Shown here piece after piece: positions 18,809 to 48,006 of a stretch of DNA of 64,000 nt (the first letter of the stretch is position 1; each line of letters opens with the position of its first letter). Made by a program: the position numbers and the translations under genes. Source of the stretch: Gammaproteobacteria bacterium (GTDB lineage: Bacteria; Pseudomonadota; Gammaproteobacteria; SZUA-140); contig JALSGV010000201.1 in assembly GCA_026982565.1 (NCBI GenBank), positions 27,658-91,657 on the forward strand, read 5' to 3'. Under the pieces are notes generated by a model. That model made no database searches. It was not told the origin of the DNA and saw only the letters and a program-made list of their open reading frames with translations.

Positions 18809-20017
18809 TCATTGTGAAACCAGGTGGGTGGCCCCACGCTTCCTTGCAACATGATAGCCCAAGACCAGCGCCATTGGTAACCACAGCACCAACCATAGCT
18901 CGCGAGGACGGGTCAGAAGGCGGTCAGTATCGAATGACATGCAAACCAATGCCAGGATCAACAGCGCAAGATAGTGGTAGTCACCACTGTCCCTGCCCGC
19001 CTGCCAGGCCTGATAGACTGCCATGCCCAACATGGCAAGCAGCAATAGCCCCCCCACCATGCCACCATCTCGAAAGGCTGCAAGATAGGCATTGTGGGAA
19101 AAGAGCAGTATGCCATCCACCTTTACATACTGATCCGTGAGGAACCCGTGTCCCCACACAGGAGCCTCGAAAATCTTGGAGAGCACAGCCTGCCAGATAT
19201 CAAGGCGGGCGCCCACCTTACGATCAAGAAGGGCGACAGTTTGAGGAAAATAGAAATACACCGCGAAAACAAGGGACCCAAGCAACAAGGCAGCTATCAT
19301 GACTTTACCCGGGCGCCACCCGATCATCATAATCATGGAGGCGGCAGCCAACGCCAACAATGAGCCTCTGCTATAGGTAAACAGGACAAAAGCAAACAGG
19401 ATTATCACAGACGCCATATGGAGAGCACGCAACCAGGCCGAACTTTTTTTATTGAAAGCATAGGCCAGATTCAACACGGCAAAAACGGCATAGACATAAC
19501 TGCTTGCATTCGGATTTTCGAGAATTCCAATACCAATCAGGCGCGGTTGGGCCGCCGGATCTCTGTACCATATTATTATTGAAGCGAAAGCGGCAACCGC
19601 CACCAACAGAGACATAAGGCGCAACATGGCCGTAAACGTCTGTGGCCATTGCTTGTACAACAAAACGGTAGAGACGACAAATACGATGACGAACAAAGCC
19701 AGCCGCAAATAATTCAAGTAGGCAGGCCACTCAAAATGCCCCCCCCAGACAGGAGAGACAAGCATGTATCCCAGGTAGACGATTATCAGAAGAAAAAGGA
19801 TATTGCCACGTAACAGGCGAAAACCACGAGGCAGAAGGAATAAACCAGGCGCCAGCACGGCCACGGAATAGAACTTATAGAGATCAACAGCATTGGGGAT
19901 GTAAAAGAATCCCGCCAGAAAAAGCGCGTAACTGACAAACAGCAGGCGCAGGAGCCTCTCCTCCCAGTTCATCCCACGCCATGCTAAACCTTCCATTAGA
20001 AGAATATGACGCCCCAA
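18809..20017 (-). CDS. O-antigen ligase family protein (Wzy_C domain; WaaL-like)
   Basis: Ten to twelve TM segments with a large periplasmic loop carrying FTYSRGSLLALAAA…GHGF…H-NAYL, the O-antigen ligase/polymerase signature. High-GC and next to galU, so likely the core ligase rather than the serotype-specific Wzy. Confidence 0.6.
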   Translation of the reverse strand: MGRHILLMEGLAWRGMNWEERLLRLLFVSYALFLAGFFYIPNAVDLYKFYSVAVLAPGLFLLPRGFRLLRGNILFLLIIVYLGYMLVSPVWGGHFEWPAYLNYLRLALFVIVFVVSTVLLYKQWPQTFTAMLRLMSLLVAVAAFASIIIWYRDPAAQPRLIGIGILENPNASSYVYAVFAVLNLAYAFNKKSSAWLRALHMASVIILFAFVLFTYSRGSLLALAAASMIMMIGWRPGKVMIAALLLGSLVFAVYFYFPQTVALLDRKVGARLDIWQAVLSKIFEAPVWGHGFLTDQYVKVDGILLFSHNAYLAAFRDGGMVGGLLLLAMLGMAVYQAWQAGRDSGDYHYLALLILALVCMSFDTDRLLTRPRELWLVLWLPMALVLGYHVARKRGATHLVSQ

Positions 20018-20088
20018 TATCTCAAGCAGTCAGATGAGCAGCGGGGCAATGCCTGCCGCGAGTAATACAGGTTTTCCGGTTTTTATGC

Positions 20089-21960: not shown

Positions 21961-22091
21961 CCCTTTCCCCTATGCAATTCCCTAGATAATCGACTACCCT
22001 CAATATGTTAACTCTATCTTATCATCCACACGCTCACAAGTGATTTAAGCTTTTGTGCCGGCCTCTCTCTGGATATGGTATTGCACCCAGC

Positions 22092-23267
22092 CTAAGCAAG
22101 ACTGGCTTGCCGCATGACTTTACATACTGCTTGACATATCGCATGCATATCATCGACGGATAAGGTTGGGTGCACTTGAAACATCAGACTAGTCTCTCCC
22201 AGCGCTCTGGCAACCGGGAGGCGCTCATCCGGGCGGAGCCCAGTCCCTTCGAATGCTTTCTCCAGATATATTTCCGGGCAAGATCCGCTAAAACAGGGCA
22301 CACCCATTTTCGTAACTGCATCAATTATCTTGTCCCTGTCCCAACCACTCCTCAGCATTTCCTGCTTTACAAACACATAATATTTATAGTACGCATGCCG
22401 TATTGATTCAGGCGCTTTAGTTACACGAAAAGCAGGTATGTCTTGAAAAGATTCTTCCAGAATTAATGCATTGCTTCGTCGCTTACGGTTCCAATCATGC
22501 ATTTTCTGTAACTGTATTCTGCCAATCGCAGCCTGCATTTCGGTCATCCGAGCATTTGTGCCAAATGACTCGTGCAGCCAGCGAAATCCGGCTGCATGCT
22601 CCCGATTGTAGACTGCATACCAGGATTTTCCATGATCCTTGAATGACCAGACACGTTCCCAGATAGTTTGGTCACTCGTTGTTAACATTCCTCCTTCACC
22701 GCCCGTCGTCATAATTTTATCCTGGCAGAAGGACCAAGCGGCAACATGCCCTAGTCCTCCCACAGGCTTGTCCTTATATAGTGCGCCATGCGATTGAGCA
22801 CAATCCTCAACCACGTATAAGTCATGTTTAAACGCTAGGGCCATCAAACCATCCATGTCACACGGCCAGCCAGCGAGATGAACAGCAATAATCGCGCGTG
22901 TTCGATCAGTAAGGACTTCGGCCACTGTGTCAGGCGTTATATTCTGGGAATCCACATCAACATCAGCAAATACGGGTGTCGCTCCCAGCATGACAATCGC
23001 ACTGACTGAGGCAATAAAGGTGCGCGGTGTAACAACCACCTCATCCCCCGGGCCAATTTCTAGAGCCCTCAATGCAATCTCTAGTGCTACAGTACCATTT
23101 GTCAGTGCTACGGCATGTTCAGTATTGCAGAATGTAGCGAACTCGACCTCAAACATACGGCCTTCTTCGCCTGTCCAATAATTAACTCTACCTGAACGTA
23201 ATGCACGTACAACAGCATCTTCTTCTTCCTGACCAAACTCGGGCCAAGATCCAAAATCCTGCATCAT
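22092..23267 (-). CDS. DegT/DnrJ/EryC1-family PLP aminotransferase (PglE-like UDP-4-keto-6-deoxy-sugar 4-aminotransferase)
   Basis: 391 aa with DegT-family motifs (TNGTVALEIALRAL…SFCQDKIMTTGGEGGM). Its position right downstream of wbpM/pglF and upstream of the PglD-like acetyltransferase supports the call. Confidence 0.8.
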   Translation of the reverse strand: MMQDFGSWPEFGQEEEDAVVRALRSGRVNYWTGEEGRMFEVEFATFCNTEHAVALTNGTVALEIALRALEIGPGDEVVVTPRTFIASVSAIVMLGATPVFADVDVDSQNITPDTVAEVLTDRTRAIIAVHLAGWPCDMDGLMALAFKHDLYVVEDCAQSHGALYKDKPVGGLGHVAAWSFCQDKIMTTGGEGGMLTTSDQTIWERVWSFKDHGKSWYAVYNREHAAGFRWLHESFGTNARMTEMQAAIGRIQLQKMHDWNRKRRSNALILEESFQDIPAFRVTKAPESIRHAYYKYYVFVKQEMLRSGWDRDKIIDAVTKMGVPCFSGSCPEIYLEKAFEGTGLRPDERLPVARALGETSLMFQVHPTLSVDDMHAICQAVCKVMRQASLA

Positions 23268-23896
23268 TAGATATGATCTCGTGCCGGAACACCCACAACA
23301 GTCAGTCCAGAGGCTATGTCATCTATCACAGCGGCACCAGCGCCAACTATGACATCATGACCTATGACACAGCCATGTATGACTGATGCACCGATCCCGA
23401 TCCAGCTTCTAGCACCTACATCCACATTTCCACCTAAGTGAGCTCCGGGTGAAATATGTACCCCATCTCCAATCTGGTTGTCGTGATCTACTGTTGCGGC
23501 AGTGTTAACTATGCATGCAGCGCCTAATTCTGAGCCTGTGTTAATTACTGCATTGGCAAAAACAACTGAACCCTTGCCAATTACTACATCTTCCGTTATC
23601 TGGGCAGAAGGGTGAATAATTGAGACAATATCAAAACCACAAGACTTAGTTCTTTCAAGTATCTCAATGCGGGTGGTATTGTCACCCACCGCAATCACAG
23701 CTTCTCCCCAATCAGAAACCAGACTATCCAATTCAGCTACTGCCCCGATTACAGACCAGACACCTGAAGAAAGCAACTCAGGATAACGATCATCAACAAA
23801 TGCAATTCGTTCCCATTGCCTAGATAATCGTGCTGCATCTGCCACTACACGGCCATGACCACCAGCACCAACAATCAATAGAGAGCGACTCATCAT
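23267..23896 (-). CDS. PglD/NeuD-family hexapeptide N-acetyltransferase
   Basis: N-terminal Rossmann-like LLIVGAGGHGRVVAD, then left-handed beta-helix hexapeptide repeats. One-nt overlap with the aminotransferase. Confidence 0.75.
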   Translation of the reverse strand: MMSRSLLIVGAGGHGRVVADAARLSRQWERIAFVDDRYPELLSSGVWSVIGAVAELDSLVSDWGEAVIAVGDNTTRIEILERTKSCGFDIVSIIHPSAQITEDVVIGKGSVVFANAVINTGSELGAACIVNTAATVDHDNQIGDGVHISPGAHLGGNVDVGARSWIGIGASVIHGCVIGHDVIVGAGAAVIDDIASGLTVVGVPARDHI

Positions 23897-24483
23897 GCAG
23901 AACCTCGAAACTTCTCCATAGTCGCATGCCCATCCTGACTTATTCCCTCACGGCATAAGACTTTTAAAATTGTCAACCAAAGGATCTTAACATCCAGCCA
24001 GAATGACCTGTTATCCACATACCAAACATCTAACTCAAATTTCTTTTCCCATGAAATTGCATTTCTCCCGTTTACCTGTGCCCACCCAGTAATTCCGGGT
24101 TTCACATCGTGGCGCCTGAATTGCCTCGCAGTATAAAGAGGTAAATATTCCATTAACAATGGTCTCGGACCAACAAGACTCATATCTCCTTTAAGTACGT
24201 TCCACAGCTCAGGCAGCTCATCAAGACTAGTAGAACGCAGAATACGCCCTACAGTAGTCAACCTTTCAGAATCATCAGAAACATCCCCATCAGAATCCAC
24301 TCTATCCTGCATTGTTCTAAATTTTATAAGCTCGAATGGCGCACCATTCAAACCAGGGCGTATTTGTCTGAAGAAAACGGGTGAGCCAACATCCGCCCGG
24401 ACCAACATCATTACAAGAAAAAAAAGTGGCGCTAGCAGAATCAAGGAAACCAGAGAAACAAGAATATCGAAAAACCTTTTCAT
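23893..24483 (-). CDS. bacterial sugar transferase (PglC/WbaP C-terminal-type undecaprenyl-phosphate sugar phosphotransferase)
   Basis: A single N-terminal TM (ILVSLVSLILLAPLFFLVMM) followed by PVFFRQIRPG…KFRTM…DELPELWNVLKGDMSLVGPRP, the hallmark of PglC-type initiating transferases. Confidence 0.85.
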   Translation of the reverse strand: MKRFFDILVSLVSLILLAPLFFLVMMLVRADVGSPVFFRQIRPGLNGAPFELIKFRTMQDRVDSDGDVSDDSERLTTVGRILRSTSLDELPELWNVLKGDMSLVGPRPLLMEYLPLYTARQFRRHDVKPGITGWAQVNGRNAISWEKKFELDVWYVDNRSFWLDVKILWLTILKVLCREGISQDGHATMEKFRGSA

Positions 24484-25706: not shown

Positions 25707-27521
25707 CTAGTAGAGCTTAGGCATTCTATTGATAGTTTCAATTGCGCTTGTATAGTCAATACCTACGGCTTGCAGATACCATTTAATACTTTCGTACCGA
25801 GGCTGGTTCTCGACCTCAACCAGACTTAGAGCATCTTCACGGGATAGCGCGCCTTCTCTTACCTGATTACTCCTAAAAGTATCATGTTCGGTAAATCCGG
25901 CGACTGTATAGTATATGTAATTGTAAAATGCTGCAGTGGCATCCCCAATGCGCCAGCTCGTATTTGTATCAGGCGACCTTTCCCAGTTGTATTGGTCTAA
26001 GGTCTCGTCAATCACCTTCTCATCCCAAACCCAGTAGTCAAACACATGGAAATAATCTGTCTTTTTGTGGATACTGCGCCAATACTCCCCTGACAAAGTA
26101 TCGAACAGGGACGAGTTGAAATAGCCTGGATTCCTGAACATTTGATAAGCTCTTTTGGATTGATAATAAAGCTGGGCCATCATACCGTGATTGTATACAT
26201 GTCGTCCTTCAAAGGATGGAGGTATACCCAGGAAGCCGGTCTTAAAATGTGTAACCTCAAGGGGATTTATTCCCCACAGGTTCAGGCTGATCTCTGTTTG
26301 CTTCTTTACCAGCTCAACATATCTGAAAAAATGCTTATCTCCGGCAGTCAGCAAACTTATCATCCCAAGATGAGGCCGTTTCAGCCAGGCAGAAAGATTT
26401 TTCCGGATATTCCTTCGCTTAAGCTCTATGTCTGCAGCGATAATAATATTCTCAACACCTAGCGCCGCACACATGCGGCTGATATTTCTCCTTCCCAGAT
26501 CGGTTATCATCCCCCAGTCATAAGTATAAGCAATAGGGTTCATCTTCAACTCGTTTACGATTAAATGTAATGAATAGCAGCTGTCCCTGCCACCTGAGAA
26601 AGGGACGATGCAATCGGGCTTGTCATTTCTACGATAAGGCTCAACCAGATCAAATAACATCTCGACGGGTTTAGGATGATTTCTAATTGTATAGTTGTGA
26701 CAATAATTACATATTCCATCCTGATCAAAGCGAATATAGGGCATAGTCTCAGGAAGGATACACCTGGAGCACCTCCTTAATTCAGGAACGATGAATTCAA
26801 GCAGATTCTCTTCACCTGCATCTGTAATCACATCAGGCAGGAGGTTAGGCCTATGTTTACTCGCAACAGTAGACTCCATGATTTTCTCAGCAATAGGAAT
26901 CTTAAGCTCAAGTGTACTCTTGACCTGGCTGACGTTTTCGCAACCAATCTCTACCAAAGGAAATGATTCTGACGAGAAATAAAGATCACCCTCCTTGAAT
27001 CCTGTGTATAAACTGCCGTTATTCGAAAACAGAAGGAGAACCCCCTCTGCGGGAATAAATGCTGCTGCGGAAATCACCCCTTCGCAATCTGAAAACAATA
27101 TACTTGCTATCTCATCAACTGACCGTCCCTTACTCCTTTCTTCCTTGATAATTACAGGTATAATTTCCGTATCGATGGAGAATTTTCGCTCAGCATCTCT
27201 TTTATCCCAAAGCGTATCAACATTGCATATGATCCCATTGTGTATAACGATGATGCCGTCTCGAATTACAGGCTGGTTATCCAAAACACCATTCGTGACC
27301 AATCGGCTATGCCCTGCTACAATCCTAGGCGCTTTTATTTCTGTCCGCGCCACCAGATCACTAACAGGCATATCTGCTCTGATAACTTTATATTTGTCAT
27401 CCACAAATAAAATCAACCCGGATGAGTCTCTGCCACGTTGCTCCGCAGCCTCTGCAAGCAAAGTGATTTCGTTTGTTTTTTGTTCATCGCTGCTTAACAA
27501 ACAGCCAAATATGCCACACAT
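25707..27521 (-). CDS. fusion: N-terminal class-II (Ntn) glutamine amidotransferase domain plus Zn-ribbon plus PP-loop N-acetyl-sugar amidotransferase (WbpG/WbuX/PseA-like)
   Basis: Starts MCGIFG (catalytic Cys2 of class-II GATases). Residues about 250-275 are CSRCILPETMPYIRFDQDGICNYC. Around residue 308 is PFSGGRDSCYSL, a PP-loop SGGxDS. Confidence 0.7.
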   Translation of the reverse strand: MCGIFGCLLSSDEQKTNEITLLAEAAEQRGRDSSGLILFVDDKYKVIRADMPVSDLVARTEIKAPRIVAGHSRLVTNGVLDNQPVIRDGIIVIHNGIICNVDTLWDKRDAERKFSIDTEIIPVIIKEERSKGRSVDEIASILFSDCEGVISAAAFIPAEGVLLLFSNNGSLYTGFKEGDLYFSSESFPLVEIGCENVSQVKSTLELKIPIAEKIMESTVASKHRPNLLPDVITDAGEENLLEFIVPELRRCSRCILPETMPYIRFDQDGICNYCHNYTIRNHPKPVEMLFDLVEPYRRNDKPDCIVPFSGGRDSCYSLHLIVNELKMNPIAYTYDWGMITDLGRRNISRMCAALGVENIIIAADIELKRRNIRKNLSAWLKRPHLGMISLLTAGDKHFFRYVELVKKQTEISLNLWGINPLEVTHFKTGFLGIPPSFEGRHVYNHGMMAQLYYQSKRAYQMFRNPGYFNSSLFDTLSGEYWRSIHKKTDYFHVFDYWVWDEKVIDETLDQYNWERSPDTNTSWRIGDATAAFYNYIYYTVAGFTEHDTFRSNQVREGALSREDALSLVEVENQPRYESIKWYLQAVGIDYTSAIETINRMPKLY

Positions 27522-28892: not shown

Positions 28893-30197
28893 CTATCTTA
28901 CTGAATATCCAGCTTTCGACCTTACTAAGTATATTATAATAATTGCGACGAAAAAACCGTGCGTAAGCATTGCAGTAAACAAGTCAGTGGATATTAAAAA
29001 GCTCCTTAATGGCACTATGGTTAAAGAAAGAGAAACCCATAATGGCAATGATAGGAAAGTAATGTCATCGATAAACCGCAGCAAAATACCGACCAAAATC
29101 GAATAAAATATAACACCCAAATATCCTGCATGAGCAAACCCCATTGATACAAAGCCATTATTTGCATTTAAGTCATCTTTCCCCAAGAATTGACCAATAA
29201 CCTCTCCAACAGGACGATCATATGGGTATTCGACTAATGATTTTAAAATTGAATTTGACCAATAAACATTTGGGTTAGAGGCAAAGAATTCAAAATAATC
29301 GTACGTCAGGCGAGCTGGAACAAAGAATACCCGTCTCGAAAATAACGATGAAGCCGTGACATCACCCATAAAATAGTAAGTTAATAGTGAAGCCACAATG
29401 ACACTACTAAAAATAAAGGGCACTACAACAGCACTATTGGTCTTTCTAAAATAAAACCAAATTCCCACCACCAAGACAGGATAAAACAATACTGCCTTAT
29501 GCGCGGAAGCAGCAAAGAAATAAACCTGTATTAAAAATAAAATTACAGCTATAAAATAGCGCTTGTACAGTAATGCAAAGGTAAATAGGGTCACGTTAAA
29601 TATCTGATATGTCCAATTATTCGTATAGGCGAGTATTCCTCGCGCTGCAATTTCAGCGTTTCCCCTCCTAAATTCATACACCTTAGAAAAGTCTAAATTA
29701 AACTTTACACCAGAAACAAAATACCAAACGATTAGTAGCACAACAAATACAAGCGATACAACTACAGCAATCCCCATCCCATATTTAATTGTTGGCAACC
29801 CTTTAAAGGAAAAAAATTTAATATGACTGATAATATATGTTAAAAATAACGCAACATAGACAGTTAATAGTGGTAGTAAATCACGATTTGCATCGTAACC
29901 ATATAGAATAGTAATTGGAGCTAGCACACCTAATAATGCGGTGATAAAAAAATAGTCACTCACCCTTGTAATACGCCCCCTAACCATCACGAAAGAAAGA
30001 ATGAAAATAAGCCACGAAAGAATATAGTTAGAGAGCTGGAAGTTAATACTATAACCAAGATAACCAAAGACAGTACTGACAATATTGACGTAAGACGCCT
30101 CAAGTAATGCCCTAAACAGCAATGCAAACAAGAAAAAATTCCTGCTTTTAAGAAAACTGCCATAAATATTTTTGTTGATATAATTCACAGCCACCAT
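28893..30197 (-). CDS. polytopic membrane protein, probable O-antigen polymerase Wzy
   Basis: 434 aa, about 10-12 TM helices, very AT-rich, no soluble domains. Located among GT, Wzx and modification genes. Assigned by context only. Confidence 0.5.
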   Translation of the reverse strand: MVAVNYINKNIYGSFLKSRNFFLFALLFRALLEASYVNIVSTVFGYLGYSINFQLSNYILSWLIFILSFVMVRGRITRVSDYFFITALLGVLAPITILYGYDANRDLLPLLTVYVALFLTYIISHIKFFSFKGLPTIKYGMGIAVVVSLVFVVLLIVWYFVSGVKFNLDFSKVYEFRRGNAEIAARGILAYTNNWTYQIFNVTLFTFALLYKRYFIAVILFLIQVYFFAASAHKAVLFYPVLVVGIWFYFRKTNSAVVVPFIFSSVIVASLLTYYFMGDVTASSLFSRRVFFVPARLTYDYFEFFASNPNVYWSNSILKSLVEYPYDRPVGEVIGQFLGKDDLNANNGFVSMGFAHAGYLGVIFYSILVGILLRFIDDITFLSLPLWVSLSLTIVPLRSFLISTDLFTAMLTHGFFVAIIIIYLVRSKAGYSVR

Positions 30198-30222: not shown

Positions 30223-31608
30223 TTATTTTATTACATTGACATAAAAAGATTTGCTTGATTTTTTATGGAAAAACGAATTATGCCATAGCAGGGTAAAATC
30301 TCCTGAATGCTCCTTGCATTTATTCTTGAAATAATCGAAACGCTCCATAGCGAGGTGGGTAAATCCCAGGCCCTCGAATTCATCAGATAAAATTGACGCC
30401 TCCATTATGATCAATGGTCTTTGCCTTAGGTTCATTTTCTTCCGGCGAACTAATGAATACATTGTATACTCATAGCATACACCAGCGCGAAAACCCGGTT
30501 TATCAGGATAGCCTAGCGTTGAGTCATATATAAATCCGTTTTCCTGCCAATAGTCTGGTGTTCTAGCGATATCGTATCGCATGTAGTGTTGTCTCCCCCC
30601 CATTGAGGCAATATCAATATTTAGATTTCTACAAGCCTCACGAAGCGCCTGTGCTGACTGAGTGAATTTTTCTGAGCAATGATATGTCTCATAGCCTGGG
30701 TGAAATCCAATTTCGTGCCCCGCTCCTGCAATTTGTCTCAATAAATCTTGATTTTTCCCAGTCCGAATGTCATCAACATTATCAAACTGAGTGTCAGTCT
30801 GAATTGGTATAAAATAAAAAGCCACCTTATTTCCCGCTTTTTGATTAACTGTCATAATCCAGTCAATATTCCTCCGATATTCATCGAAATAATCGGATCC
30901 GAACCTCTTGAATATGTAATTCAGTCCGTCACGTATTACTAATTCAGGGTTATGGTCACGAATAAGGCGGGCACAGACACGTAGTAATGTTCTTTTTAAT
31001 GAGCGGCCAGCCAGATCAAAAGGCTGGTCTATATCACAACTAATGAGCTTTCTGAATTTGCGTTCTTTTCTTTCCATATCAGGCCATAAGGTTTGTATGC
31101 AAGCCCATAATATGTCTAAATATTGATTCACTACTGGCTTATCTAAAAAACCTGCATTATAAGCAACGGAAGAGGATGCAGGAAACCGGTCATGTTCATC
31201 TCTTTCAGGCGTAATGAGTTCTTCATAACGCGTCAGCATGAAGAAAGAGCTACCAAATATGTCCAAATTCATATGGATACAATTGTAATTTTCCTCCATT
31301 CCTGCCTGACCATAAATAACCGGAACGCTGATTTCAGCCAACTTTCTATTAAAACGATGTGACACAGGCACCCAGAATTTCATAGGCAACACAGGCATTG
31401 TTGATTTTCCCAGCCACTCTTTGTGCGCCCGGTGAAAAAAATCAGCATTCAATGATATAGATGAAGAACTCCCTGGCCTTCTGATATTGATATTGCTTTT
31501 ATCATACTCTTCTACTCTGAATGGCAAACCGAGAAATTCTCCAATCATTATATCTAGAATATAATGCTGTTCTCTTATGCATACTTTAGGAATCTGGACC
31601 AGTAGCAC
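30223..31608 (-). CDS. hypothetical carbohydrate-modifying enzyme (possibly divergent polysaccharide-deacetylase-like)
   Basis: 461 aa, soluble. A possible metal-binding HEIGFHPGYETYH preceded by an acidic DNVDD. The family assignment is weak; the CDS itself is clear. Confidence 0.4.
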   Translation of the reverse strand: MLLVQIPKVCIREQHYILDIMIGEFLGLPFRVEEYDKSNINIRRPGSSSSISLNADFFHRAHKEWLGKSTMPVLPMKFWVPVSHRFNRKLAEISVPVIYGQAGMEENYNCIHMNLDIFGSSFFMLTRYEELITPERDEHDRFPASSSVAYNAGFLDKPVVNQYLDILWACIQTLWPDMERKERKFRKLISCDIDQPFDLAGRSLKRTLLRVCARLIRDHNPELVIRDGLNYIFKRFGSDYFDEYRRNIDWIMTVNQKAGNKVAFYFIPIQTDTQFDNVDDIRTGKNQDLLRQIAGAGHEIGFHPGYETYHCSEKFTQSAQALREACRNLNIDIASMGGRQHYMRYDIARTPDYWQENGFIYDSTLGYPDKPGFRAGVCYEYTMYSLVRRKKMNLRQRPLIIMEASILSDEFEGLGFTHLAMERFDYFKNKCKEHSGDFTLLWHNSFFHKKSSKSFYVNVIK

Positions 31609-31610
31609 TT

Positions 31611-32573
31611 CTAAGTCCTGAGCACGTCGCGAAGGAATAATGATGTCTTTAATATTAAACTGGGTGTTTTATATATTGTGAAATATGGATGCTGCCTTGC
31701 ACCAAATGCGCGGAAATAGCGCTCAATTGACTCAATCATAGAACCTTCGAAATCGAATCTTTTAGTTACAGTTGAAGCATGGAGAATTGCATGCCACATA
31801 CACAAACTGGTTGCCCCACTGTTTCTTAATTTCGGGTCGCTCCCTCCCATAATATAATAAGCACTATTTTCATCCCATACGATATAAATTCCCGCATGGT
31901 GACGACCCTCAGGGTCCTCTGCCACCCATATCTTTCTACAATGATGCTTGACACAGGCGGAATCCAGGCGGTGAATAAAGCCATCTGAATATGGCTGCTG
32001 TATTCCCTGACGATTATAGGTTAGCCTGTTTAGACGGATGAATTCATCCAAATCCACGTCATCGCGTATCCTGAGATTAAGTCGAGACTCCGCTTTTCTT
32101 ATATCAGTCCGTATATTTGCTTGCATTTCAGACCAGAGGTGCTCGCTATCTGAAAGATCAGGAATTACATATGTATAATTTGTCGTTTGCTTGAATCCAT
32201 TCCAGTAAAAAGGCAGCCAGTTTAAATTTTTAAAACTCCAACTTTGAATAAAATGATCAAATTCGGGTAATTGGTCTATCAATTGCTGTATTAGATCTTT
32301 TTCTTCAGACAAGGCCTTGGCATACTTAGCATTAGAAGGGCACAACCAGGGACCAAGTGTTTGGGTCAGGCATGGCTGAGTAATTATGGTGAAGCCATAT
32401 TTTCTCTTAGTATAGTAAGGCATGGCGGCCATGACTTTCCCGCCTTTCTCTACAATCGCGGCCTCCCAGTGGCCTGAACCTTCACATACGGCATCCAACC
32501 ACCAATCACGTGAAAAAATCGGGATGGTCGGTTCATTCTCACAAAGTTTCCGATAAATATCTTTATTGTCCAT
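31611..32573 (-). CDS. FemAB/BioF2-like GNAT-fold acyl/aminoacyl transferase (tentative)
   Basis: 320 aa. Size and two-lobed composition resemble the Acetyltransf_6/FemAB-like proteins that occur in polysaccharide loci. Three-bp gap to the upstream gene and one-nt overlap with the sulfotransferase. Confidence 0.4.
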   Translation of the reverse strand: MDNKDIYRKLCENEPTIPIFSRDWWLDAVCEGSGHWEAAIVEKGGKVMAAMPYYTKRKYGFTIITQPCLTQTLGPWLCPSNAKYAKALSEEKDLIQQLIDQLPEFDHFIQSWSFKNLNWLPFYWNGFKQTTNYTYVIPDLSDSEHLWSEMQANIRTDIRKAESRLNLRIRDDVDLDEFIRLNRLTYNRQGIQQPYSDGFIHRLDSACVKHHCRKIWVAEDPEGRHHAGIYIVWDENSAYYIMGGSDPKLRNSGATSLCMWHAILHASTVTKRFDFEGSMIESIERYFRAFGARQHPYFTIYKTPSLILKTSLFLRDVLRT

Positions 32574-33529
32574 TATTCCCTACTATTATGAAAAATATTT
32601 TTCAGGCTTGAATAGATATCTTCATCAATACGTACTGATCTCTTGTTGGGAAACTTATCAGGAACACTAAATCGGCGCGCGAGATGTACATCATGAGATA
32701 TAAGAAACCTTTCAAAGTTGTCCAGTGATGACCTTACATCACTACAAAAATCTTCATACTTGAAAGTAAGAACACGTCGTCGATCAATGAATCCATTTTT
32801 TTCGGCTTCATATATAACATTATGAATAGCGCGTATCTGTTCTACCGCCTGGCTTGCTGGCTCAAGTAGTTTTAATTGCTCAATATTCGGAGGAGGCACT
32901 GACCACCACTGATCATAGCGCCCCAACGCCGTTTTCCTGCCATCGAGTATTGAAAGTGCGTTATCAAACTCATTTCTCTTAATAATGACAAACAATGCTT
33001 CAGGAATGTGCATTGAAATTGGTTCAAGCCTCATGCTTGCATAGAGATTTTTGAAAATGACTGGTTTGTCAAATGTCTCTGTCAAGGAAATAATGGAGCG
33101 GCGGAACCTGCGCATTCGTGCATCATCAACATTCTCTGACGATACATATACAGGTTTACTTGGAAAAAATCTGTACCACCATAAACCGCACTCTGATGGC
33201 CCTGATCTTCCTAAGGTTGCACCAAAACGGGAAGTGTAGTCAGAGCATGACTTGTCTTTTAGTGGACGAAACAAGCGCTCTGCCAGAGCCGGAGCACCAA
33301 AGAATTTACAGTGTAAATTGCTTAAATATCCCACATCAAATGCATCTGTAAGCACCTGATATACTAGCGTACTACCCGAACGTGGTGCCCCAATAATAAA
33401 TACTGGCGGATATTTAAGGTCTCTGTCGTAAACAGGCGCCATTAGCATATCAATATAATTCAGTACTATTTTGTTTACCAAGATAAATAACCGCCGCCAG
33501 TATCTGGACGGAGAAAGATACTTTGTCAT
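32573..33529 (-). CDS. PAPS-dependent sulfotransferase
   Basis: 5'-phosphosulfate-binding loop PVFIIGAPRSGSTLVYQVL near the N-terminus. About 318 aa, typical of bacterial Sulfotransfer_3 proteins. Confidence 0.7.
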   Translation of the reverse strand: MTKYLSPSRYWRRLFILVNKIVLNYIDMLMAPVYDRDLKYPPVFIIGAPRSGSTLVYQVLTDAFDVGYLSNLHCKFFGAPALAERLFRPLKDKSCSDYTSRFGATLGRSGPSECGLWWYRFFPSKPVYVSSENVDDARMRRFRRSIISLTETFDKPVIFKNLYASMRLEPISMHIPEALFVIIKRNEFDNALSILDGRKTALGRYDQWWSVPPPNIEQLKLLEPASQAVEQIRAIHNVIYEAEKNGFIDRRRVLTFKYEDFCSDVRSSLDNFERFLISHDVHLARRFSVPDKFPNKRSVRIDEDIYSSLKNIFHNSRE

Positions 33530-33611: not shown

Positions 33612-34892
33612 CTAGATAATGTTCCTTGGTCTTTTTGCAGATGCAAGAATAAAGAAATAGTATAGGATATATAACAACACATCTATTATCAGGGCAGCAT
33701 ACAAAAGAACTATTATTTCACCTTTTGGGGCAACCCAGCTAAATACAGAAAGCGTCACCAAAAACGCAATGACTTTCCATATGGCACCATACTGATTATT
33801 TTTTGTTGCACCAAGGGTGCTGCTTAGTGTGGAAACAACAAAGCGAACTGCCAGTGCGGGAATTAATATCTGACAGTAGACTCCAGCTTCACGCCATGCC
33901 TCGCCAAATACAATCGCGAACAACTCTGGGGAAAATAATATTAGAAAAACCATGGGCACACTGGCAATAGCAGCAAGTAGTAATGTGAGCTTATATATGT
34001 ATGAGGTTACATTCTGTCGCGTGTTGACAAGATCTACAACCTTCCTTAAGTTAACCTGAGAAACGGATGCTGAAATAAAGCTTAATGGGGCGTTAGCTAC
34101 CCACATTACAAGAGCATAGAAACCTACAGTGGACTCCGGAAAATAACGCGAAAGAAAGAAAATGGGTATTGCCAGTGTAATACCATTAAGCAAGCTGCTG
34201 CTGGCGTTATATATGGGATATTCCTTATATCGCAGCATAAGGGCATATTTTTTTCTCCAACTGCCAAATAATGAGGTAGATAGACTATTCCAATTTGCAT
34301 GAATGATATAGCATGCGGCAAGCACTGCAGCAAGTATATTCCCAAGCAAAAGTCCCACAAACCCAACGCCGGCCACGCCTAATATTATGTTTAGTGTAAC
34401 TGCGGTAAGTGCTTGTACCAATTTGGACTCTGCCATCAACTTATAGAGTTTATGGCGGTTCGCATAATAACTACTCGCCTGGAATACCCCAATCATAAGC
34501 AGCATAACCGGCGTCAGATAAAGCCAGCCAGAAAGCTGACCAACATCAAGAAGGTCTGTCAGCCATTCATGAAAAAAATAAAGGAAAATCGCAAACAATA
34601 TCGAGATAGAAATTGTAACCAGTACTGAAACACCAAAGAGGTTCTTTCCTTGGTTATCATCCTTAGGCAATACCAATGCCACCTCATATTTACCGCAAAC
34701 AGCAGGTAGAATACTGGTCACAATAGCCATGAATACCGCCAGCAAGCCAAAATCCGTAGGCGTATATAATCTTGTCAATATTGGACTTGCCAGGACAGGT
34801 ATGGCCTGGGCTAGAGCTGTACCAGTAGCAAGCACAGCCACGCTTCTGGCAAATTGACTACTGCGTAAACGGGTTACAGTCCTCACCCTCAC
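33612..34892 (-). CDS. wzx: Wzx-type O-unit flippase (MOP/polysaccharide biosynthesis protein family)
   Basis: 426 aa, 12 predicted TM helices. N-terminus …AVLATGTALAQAIPVLASPILTRLYTPTDFG is typical of Wzx/RfbX. Confidence 0.8.
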   Translation of the reverse strand: MRVRTVTRLRSSQFARSVAVLATGTALAQAIPVLASPILTRLYTPTDFGLLAVFMAIVTSILPAVCGKYEVALVLPKDDNQGKNLFGVSVLVTISISILFAIFLYFFHEWLTDLLDVGQLSGWLYLTPVMLLMIGVFQASSYYANRHKLYKLMAESKLVQALTAVTLNIILGVAGVGFVGLLLGNILAAVLAACYIIHANWNSLSTSLFGSWRKKYALMLRYKEYPIYNASSSLLNGITLAIPIFFLSRYFPESTVGFYALVMWVANAPLSFISASVSQVNLRKVVDLVNTRQNVTSYIYKLTLLLAAIASVPMVFLILFSPELFAIVFGEAWREAGVYCQILIPALAVRFVVSTLSSTLGATKNNQYGAIWKVIAFLVTLSVFSWVAPKGEIIVLLYAALIIDVLLYILYYFFILASAKRPRNII

Positions 34893-34954: not shown

Positions 34955-36055
34955 TCAGGATTCTACTAAATCGCTTATTAATTCCGACACGAACTGAACA
35001 TCAGAATCAGCCAGGTAGGGATTCATTGGCAGACTGATAACTTCAGACGCAACATTTTCTGAAACCGGGTAGCCGCCCTTTTCATTATTCAAATATTTAA
35101 AACACTCTTGCTGGTGCAATGGGACAGGGTAGTGAACTGCCGTAGGTACGCCTTTCTTTCTTAGTTCGTTCCGCACTTCATCACGATCACTGACGCGAAT
35201 CGTATACTGTGCCCAAACTGATGTTCGATCTGGCCTGACAGATGGTTTATGAATACTATCTGGTAATTGACGTGTATAATTCTCCGCCACCTCCTGCCGT
35301 AGAATTATCTCGCGCTCATAATGTGGCAACTTTGCGAGAAGAACTGCAGCCTGAATAGTATCCATTCTCCCTCCCATGCCTATGTATTTATGACAATAAC
35401 GCTTAACCTGGCCATGAACACGCATCGTTTTGATTTTTTCCGCAAATCCCTCATTATTTGTAAACACGGCGCCGCCATCACCATAACATCCTAGTGGTTT
35501 GGCTGGGAAAAAACTCGTAGTATAAATATCGCAATAGTGAACCTCCATTTTATTTTTATATAACGAACCAAATGATTGCGCACCATCCACAATCAACTTG
35601 AGGTTGTTTTTTTTCGCTATTGAGCATATTTCATCAAGGTCACATGGCTGTCCAAAAATGCTGACAGGCATGATTATTTTGGTTTTATCTGTAATTACAG
35701 AGTCAATTTTCGATGCATCAATATTGAATGTATCACTTTCTATATCGACGAATACTGGTATAGCCCTCAAAAGAGCGATGGTTTCAGCTGTAGCGATAAA
35801 AGTGAATGGCGTCGTTATCACTTCATCACCAGGCTGGATATCCAATGCCATCATGGCAAGCAACAATGCATCGGTTCCGCTTGAGCACGCTATCACGTGC
35901 TTAGCGCCAGTGAATCGGGTTAGATTATTTTCTAATTCGGCTACTTCTTCCCCCATGATATAGTTTGATTTATTCAACACACCATGAATCCTTGCATCGA
36001 TCTCTTTTTTATATAACTGATATTGGTGTTGTAGATTTGCAAAATCAATACTCAT
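34955..36055 (-). CDS. DegT-family aminotransferase (WbpE/WlbC-like UDP-3-keto-sugar 3-aminotransferase)
   Basis: DegT/DnrJ/EryC1 motifs (ACSSGTDALLLAMMAL…SFFPAKPLGCYGDGGA). Adjacent to WbpD-like and WbpB-like genes. Confidence 0.8.
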   Translation of the reverse strand: MSIDFANLQHQYQLYKKEIDARIHGVLNKSNYIMGEEVAELENNLTRFTGAKHVIACSSGTDALLLAMMALDIQPGDEVITTPFTFIATAETIALLRAIPVFVDIESDTFNIDASKIDSVITDKTKIIMPVSIFGQPCDLDEICSIAKKNNLKLIVDGAQSFGSLYKNKMEVHYCDIYTTSFFPAKPLGCYGDGGAVFTNNEGFAEKIKTMRVHGQVKRYCHKYIGMGGRMDTIQAAVLLAKLPHYEREIILRQEVAENYTRQLPDSIHKPSVRPDRTSVWAQYTIRVSDRDEVRNELRKKGVPTAVHYPVPLHQQECFKYLNNEKGGYPVSENVASEVISLPMNPYLADSDVQFVSELISDLVES

Positions 36056-36064
36056 ATCGGCATC

Positions 36065-36655
36065 TTATTCATTAATTATCCTTACGGTATTATTCTCAAG
36101 GCGGTACCGCTGACCAGTGGCTGTACAGAACGCCTCGCTATTCCCTGAAAGCGGCAAGACCAGTCTCTCACCATATTGGCTCATCCACCCCACCTGTTTG
36201 GCTGGCACGCCAACCATTAATGCATATGCTGGGACGTCCTTATTAACAACTGCGCCGGCGCCTATAAATGCATACTCCCCAATCGAGGTGCCACATACAA
36301 TCGTGCAATTTGCACCCAATGTTGCCCCCTTTTTGACTATTGTATCCCGATACTCGCTCTTTCTGTTTATCGCTGACCGCGGATTGTAAACATTTGTAAA
36401 AACCATGGACGGCCCACAGAAAACGTCGTCTTCTAAAATTACATTATCATATACAGACACGTTATTCTGAATTTTAACATTGCTCCCAATTTTGACAGTA
36501 TTTCCAACAAAGACATTTTGCCCAAATGTGCATCCTCTTCCAATTCTTGCCCCACTACATATGTGAGTCCAATGCCATATTTTTGTGCCTTTACCAATAA
36601 TTGCGCCATCATCGACAATGGCAGTTTCATGTATGAAAATATTATCGGTAATCAC
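36065..36655 (-). CDS. hexapeptide N-acetyltransferase (WbpD/WlbB-like UDP-3-amino-sugar N-acetyltransferase)
   Basis: Left-handed beta-helix repeats throughout ([50 protein letters not shown]…). 196 aa. Confidence 0.75.
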
Positions 36656-38618: not shown

Positions 38619-39677
38619 TCAATATTCCAGTGGTAATGATACCGTTCTTCCATCTCGTGCTGAAATATAACCGGCGATAAGAAGCTCCAATGACCTCAAT
38701 CCCTCCCGGCCATCTGTTTCTGGCTCTGTCTCGCCGCGGAGGACATCAATAACATTCTTGTAGTATAGAGGGTGACCAAACCCATAAACCGATGTTGTCT
38801 CATAATTAGCCTCTTTTATGTTGCGGTCATAGTCTCTTTCATCACTAAACTCCCAGGACTGAATATCGTTTACCGCAACCCCTCCCACACGCACTGTCCC
38901 TTTTTCTCCGAGGATTGTGATTGATCCTTCTAGATTCTTCGGGTATGTCAGCATAGTTACACTCATTGACCCAAGTGCGCCACTCCGCCACTTGATATTC
39001 ATTACCCCTGTATCCTCGACTTCTATATTTCGCGCAAGCGTTCCAGTCATTGCTTGAACAGACTCTACCGGCCCAATGAGCCAATCAATCAGGTCAACGT
39101 AGTGGCTGGCCTGGTTCATAAAAGCACCTCCATCAAGCTCCCACGTTCCACGCCACTTTGCTTGATCATAATATTCCTGGGGTCTTGTCCAGAATACATT
39201 GATGTTTACCATATATATACGCCCGAAACGCTTCTCCTCCAAAGCTCGCTTGAGTAATTGTAATGTTGCATTCTTCCTGTTCTGCTTTACAACAAACAGG
39301 TGAACTCCTGCTTCATCACAAGCCTTCACCATGCGCAGTCCATCTTGCCACCGGGTCGCCATTGGCTTTTCTGTCAGAACATGAATACCGATCCGAGCAG
39401 CCATCATGGCCTGCTCAGCATGAAGGCCACTTGGTGAGCATATAGCTACGACATCAATTTGTTCTGATTCCAGCATTGACTGAAAATCCTGATATCCAGG
39501 GACACCATGTTTTTTATGATATTTTTCCATGGAGGTTTTATTTCTGTCACATATCGCCACCAGCTCCATGTCGTTTTTGTGTCTTTCAATTGAAGCAAAG
39601 TGATTCTCTGAGATACGTCCACACCCAACTATTGCTATACGAATTTTACGATCTTTAATTACTCTGCTGATAGGCAT
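38619..39677 (-). CDS. Gfo/Idh/MocA-family NAD-dependent sugar 3-dehydrogenase (WbpB/WlbA-like)
   Basis: IRIAIVGCGRISENHF Rossmann fold. Start at MPISRV with GGAGA RBS six nt upstream. The ORF-track start 39755 is upstream read-through. Confidence 0.8.
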   Translation of the reverse strand: MPISRVIKDRKIRIAIVGCGRISENHFASIERHKNDMELVAICDRNKTSMEKYHKKHGVPGYQDFQSMLESEQIDVVAICSPSGLHAEQAMMAARIGIHVLTEKPMATRWQDGLRMVKACDEAGVHLFVVKQNRKNATLQLLKRALEEKRFGRIYMVNINVFWTRPQEYYDQAKWRGTWELDGGAFMNQASHYVDLIDWLIGPVESVQAMTGTLARNIEVEDTGVMNIKWRSGALGSMSVTMLTYPKNLEGSITILGEKGTVRVGGVAVNDIQSWEFSDERDYDRNIKEANYETTSVYGFGHPLYYKNVIDVLRGETEPETDGREGLRSLELLIAGYISARDGRTVSLPLEY

Positions 39678-39858
39678 ATTACAGTCTCCAGACTGGATCA
39701 GGAAGAATCTCCTTAACGTTAATGAGTACCACATTATCCTTGGATATGGAGTCATAGTCGTTCATAGAGAGTTTTTTTAACTGGCCATATCCGACCGCAA
39801 CTACAATAGTCATATCTTTTACATTCCGACCTGAGAATATTTTAAGGTTTGATCTCTT

Positions 39859-40143
39859 TTATTAACCCGGCAATAATATATATCGTATTCAGCCATTGCG
39901 TGCCGGTTCGCTGCAAGGCGGCGAAACTTGCTGTAGTCATTCTACAGCAAGTTTCGCCAACGCAGTCAGCGGGACGGCACGCAATGGCCTGTCTTTTAAT
40001 ATCAACCTGTTAGGGACTTCAGGCCTGCGCTGGCACGGCGTTGCGGCGCTTGCCAATGGAATCACCATTGCCTGCGCACCGCGCCTTGTTCCAGCACAGG
40101 CCTGAAGTCCTGAATACGATATATATTGTTGCCGGGTTAATAA
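39859..40143. mobile_element. 285-bp MITE-like element: 34-bp terminal inverted repeats (33/34 match) enclosing two long near-perfect hairpins
   Basis: Left TIR ttattaacccggcaataatatatatcgtattcag (39859-39892). Right TIR ctgaatacgatatatattgttgccgggttaataa (40110-40143). Internal perfect inverted repeats: ccattgcgtgccg/cggcacgcaatgg and ggcgaaacttgctgtag/ctacagcaagtttcgcc. Also gacttcaggcctgcgctgg/ccagcacaggcctgaagtc. Confidence 0.55.
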
Positions 40144-40530
40144 CCAGCCGCGGGATTCCATGTCGATCAAGATGCGTTCCGCGTCTTCTGTTAGTGTGGC
40201 TACATGCTCATGTCCTTTTTTTAGGGCATCAGCCAGCCTGCCGACCCTGACAGAGGGGGTCTCTTTCTCCACAATCTGCGCCAGGTTGGGGGCGCTAAGC
40301 ACAACATCTATCTTCCGTCCCCCTAACTTGAGACTGATGCGGCCCGATATTCTCGCACTCAGCCATGCGGGCTCATCAACCGGATGCGGGATTTCAACCA
40401 GCAGGTCAATATCACCACCACGGGCATTATCATCTGTGCGGGAGCCAAACAAGGTGACTTGCGCCTCATCTCCAGCCAGGTCCGCAATTGCCTGGCGGAT
40501 TATATCAATTTGATACGGTTCTAGTCTCAT
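39937..40530 (-). CDS. minimal nucleotidyltransferase (MNT, Pol-beta superfamily) antitoxin-like protein; 3' end runs into the MITE-like element
   Basis: From the ATG at 40530: MRLEPYQIDIIRQAIADLAGDEAQVTLFGSRTDDNARGGDIDLLVE (GS…DIDL NTase motif). The frame continues without a stop into the element, and the last ~68 codons are element-encoded. The native C-terminus is probably lost. Confidence 0.6.
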   Translation of the reverse strand: MRLEPYQIDIIRQAIADLAGDEAQVTLFGSRTDDNARGGDIDLLVEIPHPVDEPAWLSARISGRISLKLGGRKIDVVLSAPNLAQIVEKETPSVRVGRLADALKKGHEHVATLTEDAERILIDMESRGWLLTRQQYISYSGLQACAGTRRGAQAMVIPLASAATPCQRRPEVPNRLILKDRPLRAVPLTALAKLAVE

Positions 40531-40678
40531 TATTATGCTCTGCCGGGGGAGGGTGTCGAAAAAACCAGTTTTCTTTAGTTGGCTGTGAGGAATGAACTCC
40601 AACATGTTTGGTATTCTATCGTCGTGCTTAACCGGCAGGTAACGCGGAAGACTGTCCGGTTGAAGCAATTGTTCAGCT

Positions 40679-40945
40679 CTATCCGTAGTACGTCCACATT
40701 CGGATAATTTTAACAACACGCTCTTCTTCGTAAACTTGATAGACCAATCTATGTTGAATATTTATTCTTCTTGAATATGCCCCAGACAAGTCACCAACTA
40801 GCTTTTCATAAGGTGGTGGTTTTTTATAAGGATTCTCTTGCAGCAATTCCAGCAACGATTTAGCCTTCTGCTTCAATCCAGATGCTGCAATTTTCTTAGC
40901 GTCTTTTTCTGCCTGTTTTGTATACATTAACTCCCAACTCACCAA
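40679..40945 (-). CDS. yoeB: YoeB/Txe-family toxin (RelE/ParE superfamily)
   Basis: …YSRRINIQHRLVYQVYEEERVVKIIRMWTYYG parallels E. coli YoeB …WSRRITEEHRLVYAV…IAACRYHY. Seven-bp overlap with the upstream antitoxin. Confidence 0.85.
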   Translation of the reverse strand: MVSWELMYTKQAEKDAKKIAASGLKQKAKSLLELLQENPYKKPPPYEKLVGDLSGAYSRRINIQHRLVYQVYEEERVVKIIRMWTYYG

Positions 40946-41181
40946 TCAAGCTCCTTAGAGCACTCTGATATATTTTGACTCATACCTTCTTTAATTGATT
41001 CCCGCATTCCGGGTACTGACAGCAAATGTAGCGTTTCAGCAATTGCATTCCAATCGTCCTCAGACACAAGGACGGCATTAGCTCTTTTTCCCGTAATTAC
41101 AATGGGTTGATGAGTCTCCGCCGCCTCATCAATAAGGCTATAGAGCTTAGAGCGGGCTTCTGTTGCATTCAATATAGTCAT
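40939..41181 (-). CDS. yefM: YefM/Phd-family antitoxin
   Basis: MTILNATEARSKLYSLIDEAAETHQPIVITGKRANAVLVSEDDWNAIAETLHLLSVPGMRESI is a typical Phd/YefM fold sequence. Direct GTAC-containing repeats lie upstream (41195-41230), consistent with a YefM-YoeB operator. Confidence 0.85.
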   Translation of the reverse strand: MTILNATEARSKLYSLIDEAAETHQPIVITGKRANAVLVSEDDWNAIAETLHLLSVPGMRESIKEGMSQNISECSKELDW

Positions 41182-47141: not shown

Positions 47142-47187
47142 TGATTCTTCGTCCTACTGCTTTCGGGGGGCTTTTATGTCAAGAACC

Positions 47188-48002: not shown

Positions 48003-48006
48003 CTTG

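Follow-up and report, generated by a model that had tools for sequence, protein, structure and literature searches.

What would a bacterium do with a deacetylase, a FemAB-like transferase and a sulfotransferase that are encoded back to back in the middle of a surface-polysaccharide cluster? The question is raised by a 64,000-nucleotide stretch of a gammaproteobacterial genome (GenBank assembly GCA_026982565.1, contig JALSGV010000201.1, positions 27,658 to 91,657, a metagenome contig listed in ENA as ERZ27262642 k141_29949; hereafter the window), in which three genes on the minus strand fill positions 30223-33529. The first cassette gene encodes a sulfotransferase of 318 amino acids (aa; 32573..33529, -), the second a VimA-like transferase of the Fem type (tandem GNAT; 320 aa; 31611..32573, -) and the third a VimE-like deacetylase of 461 aa (30223..31608, -), which starts with GTG and consists of an N-terminal domain, DUF7033 and a CE4/NodB barrel. 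An initial annotation, made from the sequence alone, saw in the last of these the best candidate for a genuinely uncharacterised enzyme. We consider it fairly probable that the cassette belongs to a known kind of chemistry: a Wbp/Vim nucleotide-sugar editing pathway, extended by a sulfotransferase and placed in a Wzx/Wzy-type (O-antigen-like) surface-polysaccharide cluster.

In the pathway we propose, WlbA/WbpB-, WbpE- and WbpD-like enzymes encoded just upstream would make UDP-2,3-diacetamido-2,3-dideoxy-glucuronic acid (UDP-GlcNAc3NAcA), with WbpA encoded outside the window. The VimE-like enzyme, a cytoplasmic, metal-dependent amidohydrolase of the CE4 type, would take off the original 2-N-acetyl group, and the VimA-like enzyme would attach an amino acid, most likely supplied as aminoacyl-tRNA, to the 2-amine thus exposed. 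The sulfotransferase would then sulfate the modified residue from 3'-phosphoadenosine 5'-phosphosulfate (PAPS; a cysC gene is nearby), be it on an aminoacyl hydroxyl, the sugar 4-OH or the new amine. Two GT4 glycosyltransferases would build the sugar into a repeat unit begun by a PglC-like phosphoglycosyl transferase, and the repeat unit would be flipped by Wzx and polymerised by a putative Wzy.

Do the three genes form a unit? The sulfotransferase and VimA-like genes overlap by 1 bp (TAATG), and a gap of 2 bp separates the VimA-like from the VimE-like gene (TAG-aa-GTG, with AGGA about 8 nt upstream); both junctions are typical of translational coupling, and coordinates and spacings agree exactly with those of the initial annotation when checked against the open reading frame (ORF) listing and the junction letters. 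Homologs of the 461-aa ORF align from residue 1, in support of its GTG start; full-length homologs number hundreds to thousands for each cassette protein. On the plus strand, the ORF listing holds no ORF of at least 80 aa between 30223 and 33529. A consensus terminator scan inside the cassette gave nothing convincing, with counts near those of shuffled controls, and a promoter scan was uninformative, its counts being likewise near the controls. We read the cassette as an operon because its genes overlap or lie 2 bp apart and no convincing terminator interrupts them.

Homologs of the 461-aa protein, which had been thought to have no recognisable family, number at least 3,452 (E <= 1e-5), and NCBI names some of them "polysaccharide deacetylase family protein". 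Residues 114-199 match Pfam DUF7033 (E 3e-33), and residues 67-452 match positions 53-415 of the 431 in NCBIfam NF053580 (deacetylase_VimE; E 6.7e-41), the profile of the UDP-2,3-diacetamido-2,3-dideoxy-glucuronate deacetylase VimE, so that the VimE architecture, an N-terminal region containing DUF7033 ahead of a deacetylase barrel, is present along the full length. A search of PDB sequences found only marginal CE4 similarity (E 0.08-0.7). The structural comparison that the initial annotation had proposed for this protein and the 320-aa protein was run on models of both; it revealed a CE4/NodB fold in the former and a Fem-type fold in the latter. In the 461-aa model, the C-terminal ~210 residues form a deformed (beta/alpha) barrel that superposes on CE4 enzymes, namely 3rxz, a putative polysaccharide deacetylase (match score 16.3), HP0310 (3qbu, 15.8), ArnD (8t0j, 15.2) and the Bordetella O-antigen deacetylase WbmS (3hft, 13.8). 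Six residues, D192, D194, H298, H303, R339 and H443, are invariant among 28 homologs. In alignments, the GHEIGxH segment with H298 and H303 falls on GHE[IV]xxH in HP0310 and 3rxz, a segment which we take to hold the two metal-binding histidines in CE4 enzymes; the suspicion of a deacetylase with a possible metal site at HEIGFHPG agrees with the fold and with these invariant histidines. The aspartates and H443 may belong to the remaining CE4 metal and catalytic motifs.

Compared with ArnD, WbmS, HP0310 and 3rxz, the 461-aa protein carries about 180 additional N-terminal residues including DUF7033, and its presumed substrate is a nucleotide sugar rather than a lipid-linked or polymeric glycan. 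Its N terminus is modelled as a well-folded domain (predicted local distance difference test, pLDDT, ~98) and has no signal peptide. We rejected a secreted deacetylase acting on the polymer (PgaB/IcaB type), since the protein starts with a folded domain in place of a signal peptide and has nucleotide-sugar enzymes as its partners; an ArnD-like deformylase was likewise rejected, no formyltransferase having been found in the cluster. We infer that the substrate is UDP-GlcNAc3NAcA and that the acetyl group removed is the one at N-2, not N-3, which turns an unknown 461-aa enzyme into a testable prediction, that of a VimE-type UDP-diacetamido-sugar 2-N-deacetylase.

The precedent for this chemistry comes from oral Bacteroidota. 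The sugar linking type IX secretion system (T9SS) cargo in Porphyromonas gingivalis is 2-N-seryl-3-N-acetylglucuronamide, that of Tannerella forsythia is 2-N-glycyl-3-N-acetylmannuronic acid, and when vimA of P. gingivalis is replaced by that of T. forsythia, Gly takes the place of Ser as the linked residue (PMC7468200). On the basis of such genetics and mass spectrometry, P. gingivalis VimE (PGN_1055) together with VimA (PGN_1056) was assigned to the pathway, and Veith et al. proposed that VimE, a putative CE4 deacetylase, frees the C-2 amine to which VimA then adds the amino acid; deacetylation was placed at C-2 because WbpD would serve no purpose if the 3-N-acetyl group were lost (PMC7468200). 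The argument holds for the window too, since a WbpD-like gene is present. The cassette resembles the P. gingivalis and T. forsythia systems in having a VimE-type deacetylase (DUF7033 and CE4) beside a FemAB-like transferase of the VimA type, in depending on the product of WbpB, WbpE and WbpD, and in the predicted exchange of the 2-N-acetyl group for an amino acid. Unlike in P. gingivalis, where the genes are scattered, those of the window are all clustered with wzx and wzy in a chromosomal locus of proteobacterial type, which has no T9SS context, includes an additional sulfotransferase and carries a GATase-WbuX amidotransferase instead of the AsnB-type WbpS.

A closer counterpart has already been drawn. 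In Pseudomonas mosselii SC006 (VAUO01000004.1), WbpB, WbpD, PorR (WbpE), PorS (Wzx), a 'sulfotransferase', VimA, VimE and glycosyltransferases are shown in one locus (PMC7468200, Fig. S7), in the same order as in the window as far as the published drawing, our sole basis of comparison, can tell. The VimA gene is about 960 bp long in that locus and 963 bp in the window; the P. mosselii locus begins with WbpA, which the window lacks. Veith et al. propose no role for the P. mosselii sulfotransferase, and in A. veronii an AsnB gene takes its place (PMC7468200, Fig. S7). Both the published pathway and the pictured gene order run counter to the idea that the 461-aa protein is the window's best candidate for an uncharacterised enzyme: a Wbp/Vim cassette with a sulfotransferase has been pictured before, and the protein is no mystery enzyme.

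Is the substrate made in the same cluster? WbpB/WlbA, WbpE/WlbC and WbpD/WlbB together make UDP-GlcNAc3NAcA, and counterparts of all three are encoded just upstream of the cassette. The WlbA/WbpB-like UDP-N-acetylglucosaminuronic acid 3-dehydrogenase (38619..39755, -) matches Pfam GFO_IDH_MocA and PDB entries 3q2i (E 3.7e-169) and 3q2k (E 5.3e-156), both of which we take to be WlbA dehydrogenases of this specificity. The WbpD/WlbB-like 3-N-acetyltransferase, a left-handed beta-helix protein (36065..36655, -), matches Pfam Hexapep and 3mqg (E 6e-96), which is titled 'Lipopolysaccharides biosynthesis acetyltransferase' and is presumably WlbB. The WbpE-like 3-aminotransferase (34955..36055, -) matches DegT_DnrJ_EryC1 (E 3.6e-109) and, over residues 3-362, Pseudomonas aeruginosa WbpE (3nyu; E 8.6e-107). 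The public gene call on the contig gives this protein 341 aa against 366 aa for the ORF used here; the longer ORF, starting at 36055, is probably correct since the alignment with P. aeruginosa WbpE begins at residue 3.

The association of these genes is not peculiar to the window. We collected 80 VimE-like loci from named genomes, fetched with a VimE-like alignment, and counted neighbours within 10 kb; the set spans Gamma-, Beta- and Alphaproteobacteria, Cyanobacteria, Paenibacillus, Clostridia, Bacteroidota, Actinomycetota, Desulfobacterota, Spirochaetes and Verrucomicrobiota. The link of VimE-like genes with Wbp genes and a VimA-type gene, present in the window, recurs across this set: a WbpE-like gene was found in 45/80 loci, a WbpD-like gene in 36/80, a WbpB-like gene in 25/80 and a VimA-like gene in 27/80. 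When the immediate upstream neighbours of the VimE-like genes were clustered, 30 of 71 were VimA-like. Sulfotransferases of the window type occurred in 10/80 loci, and nine of these ten also had a VimA-like gene, in the order sulfotransferase-VimA-VimE (Fisher p 1.6e-4 for the sulfotransferase-VimA association among VimE loci; 1e-3 when only the 62 loci with sufficient upstream sequence are considered). Other VimE-like genes keep different company, with hexapeptide acyltransferases, GNAT proteins, ATP-grasp ligases, an AAC(3)-like N-acetyltransferase, S-adenosylmethionine-dependent methyltransferases or an FkbH-like protein as partners. Loci L005, L006, L009, L015, L017, L031, L054 and L058 are examples of such varied upstream genes. 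The variety suggests a general logic in which an amine is unmasked and re-decorated, with modular re-decoration of one sugar amine.

Which group does the 320-aa protein add? The initial annotation had called it a FemAB-like acyl- or aminoacyltransferase, and the model bears this out: it folds as a tandem GNAT of the Fem type (pLDDT 91.3), and its best four structural matches are all aminoacyl-tRNA-dependent transferases. Its structural relatives are Staphylococcus aureus FemX and FemA, Weissella FemX and Sbb17, at a sequence identity of only 12-16%, and the family profile found no match among PDB sequences. Its 320 aa fall far short of the roughly 400 residues of FemA and FemX chains, so the coiled-coil insertion of the latter is presumably missing; its acceptor would be a sugar amine, not the peptide lysine of the Fem transferases. 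The family has at least 2,601 members. The protein matches Pfam Acetyltransf_6 (61.8 bits, cutoff 22; E 1e-16), marginally FemAB (25.7 bits, cutoff 24) and TIGR03019 (pepcterm_femAB), the last of which is also matched by 20 of 25 family members. The same three profiles were reported for P. gingivalis VimA by Veith et al., and the gene has the position and length of those labelled VimA in P. mosselii, A. veronii and V. cholerae (PMC7468200). We predict that the protein aminoacylates the freed 2-amine; the fold similarity alone makes aminoacyl-tRNA the most likely donor.

The same protein could also be read as an acyl-CoA-dependent GNAT that re-acylates the amine with a formyl, hydroxybutyryl or malonyl group, the sulfate then being carried by the acyl group or the sugar. 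Its strongest Pfam match, Acetyltransf_6, is indeed a GNAT family, NCBI names its homologs 'GNAT family N-acetyltransferase', and the hexapeptide acyltransferases, GNATs, AAC(3)-like enzymes and ATP-grasp ligases beside other VimE-like genes are what this alternative would lead one to expect. In Thiohalocapsa marina (L084 6001..10687), moreover, an AMP-binding gene stands before the VimA-like gene. The FemAB and TIGR03019 matches speak against it, as do the window cassette, which includes no acyl-activating gene, and the exchange of Ser for Gly upon the swap of vimA genes (PMC7468200). We therefore regard acyl-CoA as an unlikely donor and continue with aminoacylation.

The third activity is an addition to the pathway of P. 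gingivalis and T. forsythia. Judged by its sequence, the 318-aa protein is a PAPS-type sulfotransferase, as the initial annotation had it: it matches Pfam Sulfotransfer_3 (50.7 bits, cutoff 27; E 3.7e-13), and its 5'-phosphosulfate-binding (5'-PSB) loop G-A-P-R-S-G-S-T is conserved in syntenic homologs from several phyla. Among homologs, G47, P49, R50, S51, G52, T54 and R185 are invariant and S193 nearly so, the R185...S193 motif fitting the 3'-phosphate-binding (3'-PB) pattern. The subfamily has at least 601 members. Searched against the PDB, its family profile finds weak matches (E 2.5e-4 to 3.5e-3), the nearest being the CurM/OLS "activating" sulfotransferase (E ~3e-4) and TPST (E ~3e-3).

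A supply of PAPS may be encoded close by. A stand-alone gene for the adenylyl-sulfate kinase CysC (44832..45443, -; NCBIfam NF003013, E 3.4e-95, above the cutoff) lies about 11 kb from the cassette; CysC catalyses the last step of PAPS synthesis. It adjoins an anion symporter of 589 aa (42878..44647, -; CitMHS 2e-82, Na_sulph_symp 4e-14, two TrkA_C domains, TIGR00785 DASS) with a possible role in sulfate uptake. The two genes sit at the edge of the glycan island, a plausible arrangement for dedicated sulfate uptake and PAPS supply; neither CysD nor CysN was found among the window ORFs scanned. In 2024, the joint presence of a sulfotransferase and genes for PAPS synthesis within a glycan cluster was described as a hallmark of sulfated polysaccharide synthesis (PMC11641403).

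To see which partner the sulfotransferase follows, we used it as bait and recovered 80 metagenomic loci, scoring VimA where at least 700 nt and VimE where at least 2.2 kb of downstream sequence were available. A VimA-like gene lies directly downstream in 56/62 loci and a VimE-like gene downstream in 26/39, which makes the sulfotransferase-VimA pair the tightest unit. That this sulfotransferase subfamily is almost always found directly upstream of a VimA-like gene is new in this analysis, as are the structural support for CE4-type and Fem-type chemistry and the variable partners around VimE-like genes. Five sulfotransferase contexts were inspected individually; all five are VimE-type cassettes, and four contain a VimA-like gene, the exception being L086. 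More distant relatives of the sulfotransferase (29-41% identity; L148, L153, L154, L156, L158, L164) are still paired with a VimA-like gene, with no VimE-like gene within 3.4-6 kb downstream. In L148 and L153, a hexapeptide acyltransferase stands between the two, and few long ORFs appear with the standard bacterial code. Two further loci (L082 4998..6990, L085 4860..6876) have two tandem sulfotransferases and an AsnB/WbpS-type amidotransferase upstream of the VimA-like gene.

These numbers bear on a more sceptical view, in which the sulfotransferase acts on another residue of the repeat unit, a bacillosamine-type or other sugar, and is a mere neighbour of VimA and VimE with no functional unit between them. 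Sulfotransferases of glycan clusters do often act on ordinary hexoses (PMC11641403), and the sequence does not reveal the acceptor. Against such independence, Gammaproteobacteria, Desulfobacterota, Verrucomicrobiota and Clostridia share the order sulfotransferase-VimA(-VimE) in clusters that otherwise differ, and in the window the stop and start codons overlap; we find it very improbable.

If the sulfotransferase does act on the edited sugar, where would the sulfate go? Candidates are a hydroxyl of the new acyl group, the sugar 4-OH, which is the only free ring hydroxyl, and an amine. The first is weakly favoured by the link of the sulfotransferase to VimA and acyl-activating partners and by its relatives, the CurM sulfotransferase and TPST. 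The amine is hinted at by L011 (9067..9987, +), an uncultured Cycloclasticus metagenome-assembled genome whose cluster is overall the most similar to that of the window: here the VimE-like gene has a different sulfotransferase (Sulfotransfer_1/3) as its immediate upstream neighbour, and a VimA-like gene is absent. A deacetylase and a sulfotransferase on their own recall the logic of the heparan sulfate N-deacetylase/N-sulfotransferase (NDST). Transferred to the window as an analogy only, that logic combines a CE4-like deacetylase with a PAPS sulfotransferase on an N-acetylated amino sugar. Unlike in NDST, the two are separate proteins here, with a Fem-type transferase between the two steps, and we claim no homology beyond the fold; the window sulfotransferase has the PRSG(S/T)T loop of TPST and the CurM enzyme, which NDST does not. 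N-sulfation would yield a sulfamate, either on the sugar amine freed by the deacetylase or on the alpha-amine that an added amino acid would bring along. We judge it rather improbable for the window, since its sulfotransferase subfamily is tied more tightly to VimA than to VimE and the nearest solved relatives, though weakly matched, are O-sulfotransferases; nor do we know of a precedent for a bacterial glycan N-sulfotransferase.

The tight pairing invites a wider reading, which we put forward tentatively and hold to be doubtful as yet: the sulfotransferase-VimA pair, usually with VimE, would be a widespread unstudied module that makes a sulfated-aminoacyl 2-N-aminoacyl-2,3-diamino-uronic acid. 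The sulfated group may be, for example, O-sulfoseryl, O-sulfothreonyl or an N-sulfo amine. Compatible with this, but no proof of it, are the 56 of 62 loci with VimA directly downstream and the fact that the nearest solved relatives use acyl or peptidyl hydroxyls, not sugars. In a bolder version, by analogy with the CurM sulfotransferase, where sulfation activates a hydroxyl for elimination, a seryl group may even be turned into a dehydroalanyl group. To our knowledge, a sulfated-aminoacyl diamino-uronic acid has not been described in any glycan, and our literature search returned nothing relevant on sulfated diacetamido-uronic acids or on a deacetylase combined with a FemAB protein and a sulfotransferase. 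Worked out for the way in which oral Bacteroidota anchor virulence proteins, the Wbp/Vim logic is met again in surface-polysaccharide clusters across many phyla, and a sulfotransferase subfamily of at least about 600 members that nearly always accompanies VimA predicts sulfated, amino-acid-bearing diamino sugars on bacterial surfaces. If this is true, such groups would alter surface charge as well as recognition by phages and antibodies, and could be of use in glyco-engineering. The chemistry is directly testable in cultured carriers of the same module, for example Pseudomonas mosselii SC006, Halorhodospira neutriphila and Thiohalocapsa marina.

A number of observations weigh against the assignment to a Wbp/Vim pathway, or against parts of it. 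The 461-aa protein scores 140.2 bits with NF053580, below the curated equivalog cutoff of 440 bits, and is thus a VimE relative by sequence, not an NCBI-defined equivalog. No VimA-specific NCBIfam model was matched by 25 members of the 320-aa family at E values up to 1. As to the precedent, our literature search turned up no in vitro biochemical work on any VimE or VimA, both are still cited on genetic grounds only in a 2026 paper (PMC13086638), and Veith et al. never mention tRNA (PMC7468200). The synteny statistics treat loci as independent and ignore their phylogenetic relatedness. The acyl group may not always be an amino acid, as adenylating and N-acyltransferase partners suggest: in L086 (6001..9642), an AMP-binding enzyme, a 79-aa ORF and an AAC(3)-like N-acyltransferase come after the sulfotransferase in place of VimA, and in Halochromatium roseum (L077 5251..8914) an AMP-binding enzyme and an AAC(3)-like N-acyltransferase occupy the VimA position after the sulfotransferase. 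Finally, the UDP-GlcNAc 6-dehydrogenase WbpA is not encoded in the window, where a six-frame scan detected no catalytic motif of the dehydrogenase and tblastn with WbpA-like ORFs of related loci came back empty, and no Epimerase_2-type protein that could be the 2-epimerase WbpI is among the scanned window ORFs. The uronic-acid state and the gluco or manno configuration of the sugar are therefore assumed. Both genes may lie elsewhere in the genome; the WbpA dehydrogenase motif is missing from most VimE-like loci and was present in only 5/80.

How does the cassette sit in its locus? As the initial annotation had stated, it lies between wzx and wzy. The Wzx flippase gene (33612..34892, -; Polysacc_synt_3, 2.4e-21) is directly upstream, in the same place as 'PorS' in the P. 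mosselii locus, and a putative Wzy (28893..30197, -) of 434 aa directly downstream; the latter is a hydrophobic protein without Pfam or NCBIfam match, and we name it by inference only. Its homologs hold the same position in L005, L010, L019, L020 and L023. The cassette was also said to lie in the lowest-GC part of the locus. It does belong to a low-GC island at ~23-43 kb (GC 0.36-0.44 against 0.55-0.62 in the flanks), but the lowest 1-kb bin (0.358, 29001-30000) is that of the wzy-like gene outside the cassette, whose own bins (0.38-0.41) are similar to those at 36001-38000. The remainder of the Wzx/Wzy-type locus comprises two GT4 glycosyltransferases and, as previously noted, OafA (AT3 and SGNH domains) and a WbuX-type amidotransferase; rpsA, pyrF and aroA flank it.

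The far end of the cluster (18809..24483, -) encodes a PglF-like 4,6-dehydratase (623 aa), a DegT aminotransferase, a PglD/NeuD-type acetyltransferase, a PglC-like phosphoglycosyl transferase (196 aa) and a ligase-like protein of the Wzy_C family (402 aa, 18809..20017). The PglF/E/D/C-like genes are a set for a bacillosamine-type initiating sugar, and the Wzy_C protein may be either WaaL or an O-oligosaccharyltransferase. Such a combination of Pgl-like and Wzy_C genes also resembles general O-linked protein glycosylation loci. Could the aminoacyl sugar then be a linking sugar as in P. gingivalis, its free amine joined by an amide bond to the C terminus of secreted proteins? No other role of a VimA/VimE product has experimental support (PMC7468200, PMC13086638), Veith et al. 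speculate on rhombosortase/exosortase systems in Proteobacteria (PMC7468200), and the ligase-like gene ends the cluster. No sortase-like or T9SS gene turned up among the scanned window ORFs, however, and a location between wzx and the putative wzy, not far from wzz, is what one typically sees for a polymerised O-antigen; a sulfate on the amine or a neighbouring group would also seem to be of no obvious help in protein ligation. We consider a linking role extremely unlikely and favour a decoration of the repeat unit.

The amidotransferase of the locus is a fusion of 604 aa (25707..27521, -) in which an N-terminal class-II glutamine amidotransferase domain (Ntn, MCGIFG...) precedes the WbuX-type domain (TIGR03573, E 4e-38), and it probably makes an acetamidino group. 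WbuX is usually paired with separate HisH- and HisF-like partners, and HisH- and HisF-like genes are present in L086. Homologs of the fusion with 57-73% identity occur in L011, L061 and L072.

Beyond the island, a block at 46095..51822 (-) encodes Wzz (352 aa, Wzz and GNVR domains) as well as ManC, Gmd and Fcl for GDP-L-fucose, with no fucosyltransferase identified along with them; the block also includes an unassigned 172-aa ORF (47188..47706). Between the Wbp genes and cysC (~39937..41181, -) lie genes for an antitoxin of the PhdYeFM type, a toxin of the YoeB/ParE type and an NTP_transf_2 nucleotidyltransferase, at the place that WbpA occupies in the P. mosselii locus; these coordinates were converted from the gene calls of locus L001, and a domain search confirmed NTP_transf_2.

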